Positions 24,320 to 35,099 of a DNA stretch of 64,000 nucleotides are shown here, in pieces. Where the stretch lies: positions 496,001-560,000 of the forward strand of contig CDPCPM010000022.1 in NCBI GenBank assembly GCA_976551045.1, in the 5' to 3' direction. The notes under the pieces were generated by a model. It saw nothing but the letters and a program-made list of their open reading frames with translations, ran no database searches and was not told the origin of the DNA. The stretch is from Glaucostegus cemiculus (Eukaryota). The position numbers and the translations under genes are program-made. Each line of letters begins with the position of its first letter. Within the stretch, counting starts at the first letter, position 1.

Positions 24320-24410
24320 AGAAGCCCTGGTTTCTGCATGGCACCAAAGGAATTTGAGAATTGCACAGCATGTGTGATGCATATAGGGATTATTCATGTG
24401 GTGATGGTTG
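24320..24410. promoter_or_regulatory. Probable orthologue of SRR2 (Sox2 regulatory region 2)
   Basis: AAAGGAATTT...CAGCATGTGTGATGCATATAGGGATTATTCATGTGGTGATG versus recalled mouse SRR2 AAAAGAATTT...CAGCCATTGTGATGCATATAGGATTATTCACGTGGTAATG; ~3.7 kb downstream of the TSS. Confidence 0.72.
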
Positions 24411-27400
24411 CAATTGGCCTCTCATGTACATAAGAAAGAAGTGGACTGAATGTGGCCTTAACGTTCCTGGCGTTCATTTAAAAGGAACACTTCGGTAGCT
24501 CTGTAACAATTATGACGTAAATTATACATTGGGAAAGGTGTCTCTTCTAACACTGACAGAAATTATGCCAGTTTTTAGTTAAGTAGATGTTGTCGGGATT
24601 TCCTCAGTTTCCAACATAAAATCTTTATCTAATTTCCGTAATACAGATCACGAATTAATAAAATAACAGTGATTACCCAACTTTTTGAGGATCATTTGCG
24701 GTTTCCTATATTTAAAAATTATTTAAATAGTTTTAAAATTCACAACGGAGAAGGGTTTATATGCATTTCAACCACAGAATGGAAAATCACCTCCATTCTG
24801 AATATTTCCATTCCAATTTATGTTCCAAATTATGTCCCACGTATTCCAGGCCAATTTGTTTAACTTTAAATCAAACAGCGCGCTAGTGCGAGGAGAAATT
24901 GTATTTTTACATTCGTTGTATTATCCAGACGAATCGCCCTACTTCCTGCGAAGCTGAGACTCCGTTGTCAACGGTGTCAAGCGCGTCTTTGCCGGACAGG
25001 GTCAGACAGCTTTGGTCAAATTAATTATTGATAAAACCTATAGACGCAATCCTGGACAGACTCTTCCGAAGAAGGCTTAACATCCCACTCATTTCCCCCG
25101 CCCCCACCCAAGCGATCTTTAATAGGCTTATATGAATGCAAATAAAATATAAGGAGCACTGTAAGCCCCGTGCATGAGTGTTGTTTAAAAGTAGCATATA
25201 AGATTATTGATGAATTATCATGATAACCTGCGTTAATGCATGGCTTCGTATTCTATGTTTTCTCAGAATTTTGACGTGCATATTTATAATAAAATGTGTT
25301 TTTTTTTGTGTGGAACGACTGCACCATAAACAAATATGTTACGATATAAAGCTAGGGTAATTGTTGGGTAAGATTACCTGACAATAATATACATTGAATG
25401 AGAATAGATAAGCTAACGGAACATGAACTAATAATTACAATGCTGTATTAAATCAGCTAGGAGGTCTCAAACGAGACCTTTGTGTCCTGGTCCATTGAGG
25501 GTTCCAGCTGACAGCTTTTTGACAGAAAATAGCCTAAAACCTGCCTAGTGCCTCGGAGGGACAGGCGATACCTCTTAAATGGAAGTGTGATGGGATTCTC
25601 ATTTAAAGCCATTACATAGAGACAATTAAATGCCGCCGTTATACTAAATGGGTTTAACTTTCAATAACTCACCAACGCTTGCATGGAGCCGAAAAGAAAT
25701 AATAAATAAAGGCAAATCAGATTGTGGAGATTTACTGTTTGTCTAAGAGACTGGAAATGGCAGGAGGTACAACTTACAACACATCAACAGAGAAACTACA
25801 GCAGAGCCCAAGGGGCTGATTATGGTTCAACAGGTGCCACCTTTCCATAAAAATCCTGATCGCGGTTTCCTTTCGAAAAACTGGGCGAGTTCTCATTTCT
25901 AATCTGTCGTCAGCAGAGCCGGACACTGCCGCTGTACTTTCTAAAAATATGGTGTTCCCTTCAAAACAAAATCTTATCACAATCGCGTCGCTTATCCAAC
26001 TGGTGATAGAATCTACCTTATATCCAGTCACATTCTGACTATGTTTTCTAAGTTATAATTAGTGCTGACTAACGAAGGAGGGGGAACTTTAAATGTATCA
26101 TATTTGATTCCTTTTTGTTCTTATTCGGCTCCCAGATTTATAACTTTGTATTAGATTATCGGGCTCCCTGGAAGTTTAATTGCTCGATTAAAGCTATCTC
26201 GTTGTATATCTTGGTTGGTTAACTTTAATTTTTTTAACACCGTAGCGAGCAAACTAAAGAAAACATGGCGCAGGCCAACTTCAACCATGGCTGCTGTAGC
26301 GACTTTCTTTATTAAGCTACTTTTGTCAGATTTTGGGTCCCGCCAATTAAATGAAATACACGAACCACCATCGAGTATATGTCATTAGCCCTGCTTCATC
26401 AATCAACCGCTGTAGGGGTTGAGTGGAAATAAGGAGTGGCGTTTCCCGCACTGTCGATATATATCGCGCTGTATCAGAGATGCGGAGTTATCTTCAATTT
26501 GGTTTTCAGCAAACCATCTTTAAATAAACACCAGAAATGGGACGGGGTGCCAGCTGATAAACTAAATTACAAGTTCAATTCCTTTTTCTCTCGTTTTGAG
26601 GCTCCTGGATAAATAATTGCATTTTTCTCCATGATGTATTTTCCTGCAGATTTTTTTTGCTGCAAAAACAATTAGAAAGAATAGATGGCCGCTTGAGGAG
26701 TCTGAGTAAAGTCGGCGCTGGCAGCGGGGGCAGGTTCACATCCTGACGTCATCGCCCTTTGCGAGTTGGCTCCCAGTTTCCCACGGTTCAAAATTTAGAC
26801 TCTATCCCCCAACATCCACCCCCCCCCCCTCCGCCCCACCTCCCCCCAACACCAATTTAAGTAAGTTTGCTTTAACGATATCTCATGGCATTTTTATAAA
26901 TTGTCCTTGCCGGCGTTCGCGTGAGGGACAAATTTTATGTTCCTAATGAATGTAAAAGTTTTTTTTTCATCGTTCTATGTAATAGAATCGCTTTAAACAA
27001 CACGTCAGGTCCTGCGTTTATGAGAATTCGCGTATTTTCTTATTTCGAGAAAAATATGAACAATATGAGTGGAAACTTTTCCTTCGGTCCTGGGCTGAAG
27101 TGAGCTGTGTATCACCAGCCTCCCTGCGCCCCGACTAGCAGAGCCAGGAAAGGTACGTTATGGATGGACTGAACTGTCCGTAGATGGTTCACAGCAGAAT
27201 CTATCCTGTGGAGTTTCGTTCATTTTCACGCCAGCTATTCGACATTAACCCCCTCCGTGCCACATTTCATTGTCTTTGCACATTACATCTGGCTATAATA
27301 AACTAACAGTAAACAATTACTGATAGCTATTTTAATAGTATGTTTTACATTAATTCTGTGAAGACCTTTAGATGCAATTACATCTAAATTTACCACTATT

Positions 27401-30400
27401 TTAAATTAATAGATAAATCCTCTTGTTGTCCGGAACCTGTCGCAGTCTCATCACTTTGTAATTCAGATTTCACTGTTTCTACGGATCTGGTTGCCGGGCT
27501 CTGTATTTTGTGGACCCAATCGCACTACTTCCATCTACTGAACATTTAAAAATAAATCTGTAGCATTTTTGCAACTATTTGTTAAAGATTCCAAAATTCT
27601 GAGAAACGATTACTATAATATTTAGTTGGTACCTACCATGATTTATGTGTATATTTCTCATTGAAACTAACTTATGCATTCAAAGTGGCGCCATAAATTA
27701 ACTACAGTCATGTAGTGGAGACAGTTGGATTATTGTAAATCTGCTAGTTTATACCAATCAGTGGTTTTAGCTGACGGTCAGAGTGAATTTTCCACCCCGA
27801 GGGGCTATCTAAGAAGAAGGAGACTGGTCCACATAATTCTAACGCTCCTTTCTTTGTATATAAAAAATCAACCGTCATTTTGGGTAGTTAATGCAAAGCG
27901 TGAGTATTTTATAGGCGCTTTAGATTGGGATGACTGTGATAATGCCGAGGTGTAATTTCTGTTTCCGTGTTTAAAATGCTTTGAGTGCCCTGTTGAGCCC
28001 GAGGGGTGAACAGGGTTTTCACCTCTTGGACGTTCACATGCAAGTCACTGGCTTCTGACTTCAGTTGCACATTAGAATGCCACTAACAAAGCACCACAAA
28101 CCTACAGTTTGCTGTCGCTCTATTTTATTTTAAATGATCGAAGAAGATCAGCGGGCAAGAAAAACACCTCGTACTCAACACAAAACAAATGGGTGAAAGG
28201 TCTCCAAAAAGAAAAGCCAGTCAGCTTCTGAAAGATTGGAGTATAATTCTGTGACATTCTGTGACTAAACATTTGTATTAAAACCGAAGTGTAACGAACT
28301 GTTAAATGTCTGTTTAACGTTTTGTGGAATGTTATTTCTTAAGATTTTTTTTTCAAATTACAGAACTTGGAAATAGCTGGCAGATAGAGGGAAAGTAATT
28401 AAGGTATTAAAACAAGCAGTGCATTCCTCCAGAGGACCTTATCAACCAGGAACAGACTCAGCATCCCCTCAATATGCTAATATAGGAAGAATGACGTCAC
28501 AGCCGCAAGTTTGCCTGCACCATTGTGGAAACAAAGTGTGAAGTTCTGTAAACAAAATGATCTTTCCCACTCTCACTATAATCATTTAAGTATGATCTGT
28601 TGTGTTTTAAAACGCCACCCTACTGTTATGTGATATTTTGCCGTAATTTGCTAGAATGAAATGTAACGGTTTTGGGTGACGCCTATAAAGCTTTGCAAAC
28701 GGAAGTGGAATCCATAAATAAAACCAATAAACGTTAATAAGAATAGTATTATTATACATAAAACTGATTGTAAAATATGATATTATGAAACAAAAAGTAA
28801 ATCTTATCTTGCCAGTTTGAGTGTGAGCGTATCAGATGAAGAATGGGTTACAGTAATACACATCCTTTCTATCGGATAATGCTGACAATTTGATTAGTAT
28901 GGTCATTTTCATTCCGGAGGATGCAGGTTTGGGCCAAAATAAAATGCGATAGCAAATGGTTGCATTCTCTAAGAATTAAAGTCAGACCCATTATCAGTGC
29001 ACCTTCTCATGAAGAGGATGTCGTCAACTCGCCTGATGGGCCACTGTCAGTTATGTTACATTGAGTTTAATTCTGGTGTTGGTAATATGCCTAACTTGTT
29101 GTGAATTACCATGCACAATTAAAGTTCCTTTGTTTTATTCAAAATAAAGGACCAGCCATGATGGAAACAAAGATCTGAACATAGATTTTATTTTAATTGG
29201 CAATACAATAGCGTCGAGCTGCACAGAAACGTTTTATGATACTTTATGAGTTTACTATTCAACTGATATTGGAGCTGGTTCTTTTACTTAATTTTCTGTT
29301 TCCTATCTGGCCAATCAAGTTTGGTTAAAGTATTCGTATATTTGCAGTTTTGCAGTAAGGGGATCAATATTGTGAAGCGATCTGTCCCTCGCCAAAGGCC
29401 ATAAGCACACTACTTGCACAAAGACGTCACGAAGTCAACCATCTACAGAGTCATTGAGAGCATTTTGATCATCGTCGAATGAGTGATTAAATCAGTCATA
29501 TGGTCCAAACCTTAATCCAGCGAATTGAATAAAATCAAGGCCGCCACCCCCGCCCCGTCCGCTCACACACCCTTGGAATAGCCATTAAACTGAAGGTGAA
29601 TGTGATTTCTTACTTGACGATTGTTACTTGATCACCCTGGTGGGATAATAGTCACCCCAACAGATTCAGTTATGAGACTGTGCGAAATATTCAAAGGGAT
29701 TATTTTATATTACTTTTGTCTTCCAAGTTTGGGTTTGAAAACATGCAGTAAACTAAATGCGTTCAAAAGTTTTCAGTTACATTTTTATTTACTCTGAGAA
29801 GTGAGTAAATTTAGCTGAAATATAATGAAGGTTCCTATCCCTGCCCTAAGAGCATTTTATATCAGATCTTCGTTGAACCCTCTCTTCGTGGCGTGATTAA
29901 ATGAACGACAGTATACGATCTGCGTAAGGGACTTAATTTCAACCCATATTATGCAGCCGAGAAGAGGTCGGTTTACTTTAGGCGCCATTATTCAACGGAT
30001 TATGTATGCATATGGTGTCAAATACAATACGTGACAATGATGTGCAAACTGCTGCTTCTGAGCTATTCTCAGTCTAATACAGTTTCCCACTTTTCACCCA
30101 AAAGTGCTACTTGATCGCTTTGTGTTTCATCTCTAAACACACCGGGGATTAATCCTCGTTATTAATACTTGCATTTTCCGTCCTAAGGGCCCCTGAAAGG
30201 ATTTTAAAGTTTGCTTGGTAAACCTATTTCCTTTCACGACTGATTTAAATTTGCAAATCCTTATGGATGGTCTGTCACACTTTAGTTTAAATCAATAAAT
30301 ATTCTATGCAGCCGGATTGCATTGAATGCAATAACTGTATTAAATGAAAAGATGAAACCCATAAATGCATACATATTCCAGCACATAGATCTAATTATAC

Positions 30401-34924: not shown

Positions 34925-35099
34925 NNNNNNNNNNNNNNNNNNNNNNNNNNNNNNNNNNNNNNNNNNNNNNNNNNNNNNNNNNNNNNNNNNNNNNNNNNNN
35001 NNNNNNNNNNNNNNNNNNNNNNNNNNNNNNNNNNNNNNNNNNNNNNNNNNNNNNNNNNNNNNNNNNNNNNNNNNNNNNNNNNNNNNNNNNNNNNNNNNN
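34925..35099. other. Assembly gap (175 N)
   Basis: Run of N. Confidence 1.

Follow-up and report, generated by a model that had tools for sequence, protein, structure and literature searches.

Does the DNA downstream of sox2 in the cartilaginous fish Glaucostegus cemiculus contain an orthologue of the mouse enhancer SRR2, and has that element kept the Sox half of the Sox–Oct composite? We examined a window of 64,000 nucleotides around the gene, in which a sequence-only reading had pointed to an SRR2 orthologue with an intact octamer and a broken Sox half-site. The comparison starts from the following features.

Positions 20879..21811, plus strand: sox2 coding sequence, a single exon of 310 amino acids and the presumed target of SRR2 (open reading frame and protein comparison).
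Positions 24335..24406, plus strand: SRR2-orthologous core (by-eye comparison with the mouse core of PMC3413107, chance estimate and sequencing run X18).
Positions 24346..24355, plus strand: upstream anchor block, 9 of 10 letters identical to mouse.

The linked gene is identified by protein comparison as sox2 and not Sox1 or Sox3, and the presence of N2 on its upstream side agrees with this. The 90% cluster of its protein has 12 members, nine of them named and all nine chondrichthyan; seven of the nine bear the name Sox2, two are otherwise unnamed HMG-box proteins, and no other Sox occurs among them. The protein is one amino acid away from little skate Sox2; four shark entries differ from it at two to four positions and a full-length chimaera entry at 18, which points to a cartilaginous fish and, on few sites, probably to a batoid.

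The mouse SRR2 core was taken from the methods of PMC3413107 and in part from PMC4823094 and PMC5438634, as far as the available text of these papers prints it, and was set against the letters of the window by eye rather than with an alignment program. In this by-eye comparison, 35 of 41 columns are identical over positions 24366-24406 and 31 of 34 over 24373-24406, where the match consists of an exact 15-mer, a 1-nt gap and blocks of 8, 5 and 3 letters split by single transitions; the four further letters at 24366-24369 also equal those of mouse SRR2. The octamer is at the centre of the longest exact block and is equalled in conservation by the block on its 3′ side. Matches of this grade are expected by chance about 4.5e-7 times in the window and 0.02 times genome-wide, under a generous multiplicity in which two mismatches, a 1-nt gap and the start within the query could fall anywhere. 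The 15-mer common to mouse SRR2 occurs once in the window, and none of 100 shuffles held a match at one mismatch or fewer. The mouse 15-mer composite at up to three mismatches gave seven matches against a shuffle mean of 3.5, which by itself is not distinctive. Searched against the 2.85 Gb genome, 24290-24480 matches at one place and is thus single copy.

The octamer lies 2,566 bp beyond the sox2 stop codon on the same strand. Position 20643 is presumably the sox2 start site, a putative assignment by likeness to mammalian SOX2 mRNA, and the octamer stands about 3.73 kb from it, in agreement with the distance of about 3.7 kb from the transcription start given earlier. Mouse SRR2 is placed about 2.5 kb beyond the end of the Sox2 coding sequence in the accessible part of PMC5546531 and at +3.7 kb in that of PMC12005160. 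Sequence, position, strand, single copy number and an expectation of about 5e-7 all bear out the orthology proposed by the sequence-only reading, and the region 24335..24406 is very probably, indeed almost certainly, the orthologue of mouse SRR2; the mouse sequence given in that reading also agrees with the core printed in the available portions of PMC3413107 and PMC4823094. No Rfam family was found at 17000-30000, and no open reading frame of at least 100 amino acids at the SRR2-like site. A (CA)n microsatellite at 24265-24289 adjoins the conserved block on its upstream side.

A second Sox2 enhancer can be recognised on the other side of the gene.

Positions 18056..18343, plus strand: N2/SRR1 enhancer orthologue (exact 14-mer and by-eye match to the primers and probes given in the accessible text of PMC3413107).

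The POU/ATTA-3 site of N2/SRR1 is intact at 18168-18181 as the exact 14-mer. With N2/SRR1 upstream and SRR2 downstream of sox2, the predicted regulatory landscape is collinear with that of mouse. N2/SRR1 resembles the SRR2 described here in having POU and homeodomain sites without a Sox composite, and has anterior neural activity; in the available part of PMC3024949 it is reported as conserved to frog and fish, whereas SRR2 was not.

The motifs within the SRR2-like element are these.

Positions 24369..24376, plus strand: place of the mouse Sox half-site, which reads CATGTGTG and has no TTGT core; same letters in run X18.
Positions 24377..24384, plus strand: variant octamer ATGCATAT, a POU site identical to mouse (sequence).
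Positions 24387..24392, minus strand: TAATCC (GGATTA on the plus strand), a predicted K50-type homeodomain (Otx-like) motif.
Positions 24389..24397, minus strand: ATGAATAAT, possibly a second POU-like site in inverted orientation; its first base is G in mouse.
Positions 24395..24400, plus strand: E-box CATGTG, which differs from the mouse CACGTG by one transition at a CpG.

The element shares with mouse SRR2 its position, strand, variant octamer, the four bases before the octamer, GGATTA and the block after GGATTA. It differs from mouse in that the CATTGTG heptamer is missing, the spacing from octamer to GGATTA is one longer, CATGTG stands in place of CACGTG, the ATTA-4 site is absent, and the linker to the upstream anchor is 2 nt shorter and unalignable. 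The octamer and GGATTA are both intact, and both were found where the sequence-only reading had placed them, at 24377-24384 and 24387-24392. The Otx/K50 label of TAATCC at 24387..24392 is an assumption, and the site is putative. A clear extra G relative to mouse lies between the octamer and GGATTA at 24385-24388, lengthens the POU–homeodomain spacing by 1 nt and is shared with run X18. The second POU-like site is weak, since 8-mers like ATGAATAAT are common (25 in the window). CATGTG E-boxes at 24369-24374, inside the place of the mouse Sox site, and at 24395-24400 flank the octamer; the window contains 44 copies of the hexamer. The Emx2/Brn2 site ATTA-4 of mouse, as given in the available text of PMC3413107, is not retained. 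The extra G, the change from CACGTG to CATGTG and the missing ATTA-4 are differences additional to those noted in the sequence-only reading. Nor is there a MORE palindrome, defined in the accessible part of PMC4576985 as two inverted ATG[C/A]AT half-sites at a spacing of 0 or 1: here 9 nt lie between the half-site at 24377-24382 and the one at 24392-24397.

The absence of a Sox core, as first claimed, is confirmed, TTGT being missing from the heptamer. We compared the site with the zero-spacer Sox–Oct string FF0, in which the TTG core is fixed according to the excerpted text of PMC5314778. The octamer half fits, ATGCATAT agreeing with the POU half of FF0, whereas the Sox half fits at six of seven positions at zero spacing: in the octamer-adjacent register, 24370-24376, the single mismatch is the G at 24372, which stands where the Sox core has T as its fixed third base. 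In the other registers the Sox heptamer has 4, 3, 3 and 5 mismatches to FF0 at spacings of -1, +1, +2 and +3, and a Sox heptamer with a TTG core was found in none of the zero-spacer, compressed and spaced registers. The SRR2-like site is therefore outside the canonical Sox–Oct composite class, yet one step from it. Nearness to the Sox–Oct string alone is no proof of a composite, because one-mismatch matches to FF0 are common, with 56 in the window.

How the heptamer changed can be read in more than one way. The single indel, or "one extra G", of the sequence-only reading is one of two equally good alignments and an interpretation rather than an observation. Deleting the G of the heptamer would yield the mouse heptamer, but shifts the four preceding letters out of register by one; as those four letters match mouse ungapped, the change would consist of three substitutions or of two compensating 1-nt indels. 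Between the upstream anchor and the octamer there are 21 nt here against 23 nt in mouse, thus fewer and not more, and the four Sox-site bases adjoining the octamer are identical to mouse. Lone Sox-consensus heptamers are present at 24290-24296 and 24505-24511 (minus strand), about 80 bp upstream and about 120 bp downstream of the octamer. As compensating sites that arose by turnover they were rejected, such heptamers being expected by chance in AT-rich DNA on a rough estimate.

A miscalled base could in principle account for the altered Sox site, and chance for the whole match. Four of 24 related sequencing runs were compared with the window (X18, X21, X19 and X1), among which only X18 spans the site in a contig. 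This contig, from another species, covers 24295-24898 with 24 substitutions and five indels in 604 bp, and has zero differences over 24329-24443, altered heptamer included, with 0 changes in the 70 bp of the core at 24337-24406. Since the altered heptamer is common to two species, it is most unlikely to be an assembly error, and the doubt about base calls that the sequence-only reading had raised is largely removed by these shared letters. Run X21 covers the site with one read, which carries further differences and is uninformative; the contig of X19 begins at 24423, and X1 gave only two spurious pieces of 36-38 bp. Artefact or chance is hardly credible as an explanation: none of the 24 runs holds half or more of the words of the stretch, which speaks for an artefact, but run X18 carries the same letters without a difference, and a chance match would have to combine an expectation of about 5e-7 with the correct position and strand.

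The same contig bears on constraint. Within the interval first singled out, 1 of 91 bp is changed relative to X18 against 28 of 513 elsewhere (Fisher p=0.05), and with post-hoc boundaries the counts are 1 of 149 bp against 28 of 455 (p=0.002). The core thus changes less than the flank between two related species, a result of modest strength that comes from one contig of one other species, about 4–5% diverged and perhaps close kin. With a divergence of only 4–5%, the eight identical bases are no sign of selection on the altered heptamer.

What such an element might do depends on what SRR2 does in mouse, where it is described as a telencephalic and neural progenitor enhancer in which a POU site is important for function (PMC3413107, PMC12005160, in the parts accessible). 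In mouse embryonic stem (ES) cells the HMG and POU motifs are both essential for SRR2 reporter activity, and deletion of SRR2 leaves Sox2 unchanged, according to the available text of PMC5546531. The name "pluripotency enhancer", used in the sequence-only reading, is accordingly an overstatement for an element that is mainly neural in mouse and dispensable in ES cells. For neural stem cells, the accessible part of PMC4576985 reports that Oct6 binding is unaffected by Sox2, that POU3 factors are without Sox–Oct motif enrichment and that POU3 prefers the MORE palindrome.

We lean, somewhat beyond an even judgement, towards a constrained neural enhancer of sox2 that POU3 and a homeodomain factor would read with no cooperation from Sox2. 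It would build on a single-copy element that, to judge from the comparison above, has the place and strand of mouse SRR2 relative to sox2 and matches its core at 35 of 41 columns, and whose core appears, at modest strength, more constant than the downstream flank between the two related species. A class III POU factor (Brn1, Brn2 or Oct6) would occupy the intact octamer, and a K50 homeodomain factor may help at TAATCC. With G as the third base of the heptamer, Sox2 would be unable to form a cooperative zero-spacer complex, and the element would lack the direct feedback from Sox2 that mouse SRR2 receives. Miyagi is said to have found in 2004 that the same SRR2 core also serves neural activity, so that an element without the Sox site may not act in the mouse way. 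Several other points weigh against this POU3 neural reading: the HMG motif is essential too in the mouse ES-cell reporter (PMC5546531, accessible text); the octamer is a lone one rather than a MORE, and the ATTA-4 Brn2/Emx2 site is not kept; in neural cells the mouse SRR cluster is bound by BRN2 and SOX2 alike, among other factors (PMC12005160, in its available part); and the four octamer-adjacent Sox-site bases, being those of mouse, hint at retained constraint.

Those same four bases, together with a single FF0 mismatch at exactly zero spacing, would suit a site that is still a Sox–POU composite, with Sox2 brought to a degenerate half-site by its POU partner. A POU5 partner may be available. 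Both POU5 paralogues are reported in skates, and chondrichthyan POU5 proteins partly support self-renewal of mouse ES cells (PMC9492771, as far as accessible). In the present genome, among the POU exons tested for POU5, three are class II, one class I, two class VI and one class III, and two are ambiguous between POU5 and POU3; these last two are intron-split exons compatible with POU5, with scores that tie with class III. The top scores belong to four full-length single-exon POU-domain loci, of which the one tested is class III, and further POU-domain matches include four of 74 residues, outside the class assignment. However, the mismatch falls in the TTGT core that is fixed in the published string (PMC5314778, excerpted text) and the one-mismatch matches are as common as counted above, and we regard a surviving composite as unlikely. 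An early-embryo enhancer read by POU5F1/POU5F3 and Otx2 without Sox, in the manner of N2, would use the intact octamer and TAATCC, and would suit both the broad expression of the two catshark Pou5 genes before lineage segregation (PMC9492771, accessible part) and the available description of N2 as POU-dependent and SoxB-independent. This seems quite unlikely, as it is mainly Sox2 that raises the affinity of Oct4 for motifs of this kind (PMC4576985, in the text available) and the loss of SRR2 is without effect on Sox2 in mouse ES cells (PMC5546531, likewise). The conserved function might instead be repressive or E-box based, with docking of bHLH factors or cell-cycle repressors in place of POU activation. 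Mouse SRR2 recruits p21, p27 and p130/E2F4-SIN3A (PMC5546531) and Myc binding is reported there (PMC5438634), each in the accessible portion of the paper; moreover, the octamer lies between two CATGTG, and its 3′ neighbouring block is conserved to the same degree. Against this stand the 44 copies of CATGTG in the window, the absence of the canonical CACGTG and the place of the octamer at the centre of the longest exact block, and we judge a repressive or E-box function improbable.

For the age of the element, the finding of an orthologue in a chondrichthyan implies that SRR2 is older than the split between bony and cartilaginous fishes, and the pre-split age suggested by the sequence-only reading thus gains support from orthology. 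SRR2 had been traced only to platypus in the available text of PMC3024949, and its cartilaginous-fish counterpart contradicts the published "evolutionarily new origin"; SRR2 is likely much older. Given the syntenic match, it would predate the jawed-vertebrate split and would have been lost, or have diverged past detection, in frog and zebrafish. Our search of the available literature found no chondrichthyan or other non-mammalian SRR2 sequence, although figures and supplements of the primary papers may hold multi-species alignments that bear on novelty and on the direction of change; PMC3203875 and PMC4009812 contribute nothing further. Non-coding elements of gnathostomes that are kept in cartilaginous fish and not found in teleosts form a general pattern. 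SRR2 shares with them its deep conservation beside a developmental regulator, and is set apart from them by its long use as a stem-cell reporter element, by its publication as evolutionarily new and by the difference at its defining site.

The direction of change at the Sox site was judged from mouse against two related cartilaginous fish, a comparison on which gain and loss are inseparable. A loss in the batoid or elasmobranch line comes close to an even prospect, and the near-intact Sox relic would suit a recent batoid loss. Long constraint by POU and homeodomain factors followed by a later gain of the Sox site fits about as well; gain in bony vertebrates is only slightly less probable. More tentatively still, SRR2 may have arisen in the common ancestor of jawed vertebrates as a neural enhancer that worked through POU and Otx sites independently of Sox. 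Bony vertebrates or amniotes would then have acquired the Sox2–Oct4 autoregulatory site when one to three bases next to the existing octamer changed. If true, the gain would be a base-level record of how a pluripotency feedback input was added to an older neural enhancer. The weight of this is limited by the near balance of gain and loss, by the dispensability of SRR2 for Sox2 in ES cells and by the familiarity of old elements that survive in cartilaginous fish. Because chondrichthyan POU5 can already support pluripotency (PMC9492771, accessible part), the SRR2 sequences form a natural allele pair that may test a cis against a trans change of the Sox2–Oct4 loop.

Some smaller observations concern the wider locus. 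The N2/SRR1 orthologue has a 2-nt insertion just 5′ of the POU/ATTA-3 site relative to the mouse probe, and lies about 2.3–2.6 kb upstream of the likely sox2 start site, the distance in mouse being about 4.2 kb. A 175-base run of N occupies 34925-35099, about 14 kb downstream of the sox2 start, which is roughly the distance of the N1-adjacent enhancer in mouse as given in the available text of PMC12005160. The interval at about 26240-26680 is motif-dense non-coding DNA with several homeodomain-like cores and may be another conserved sox2 element.
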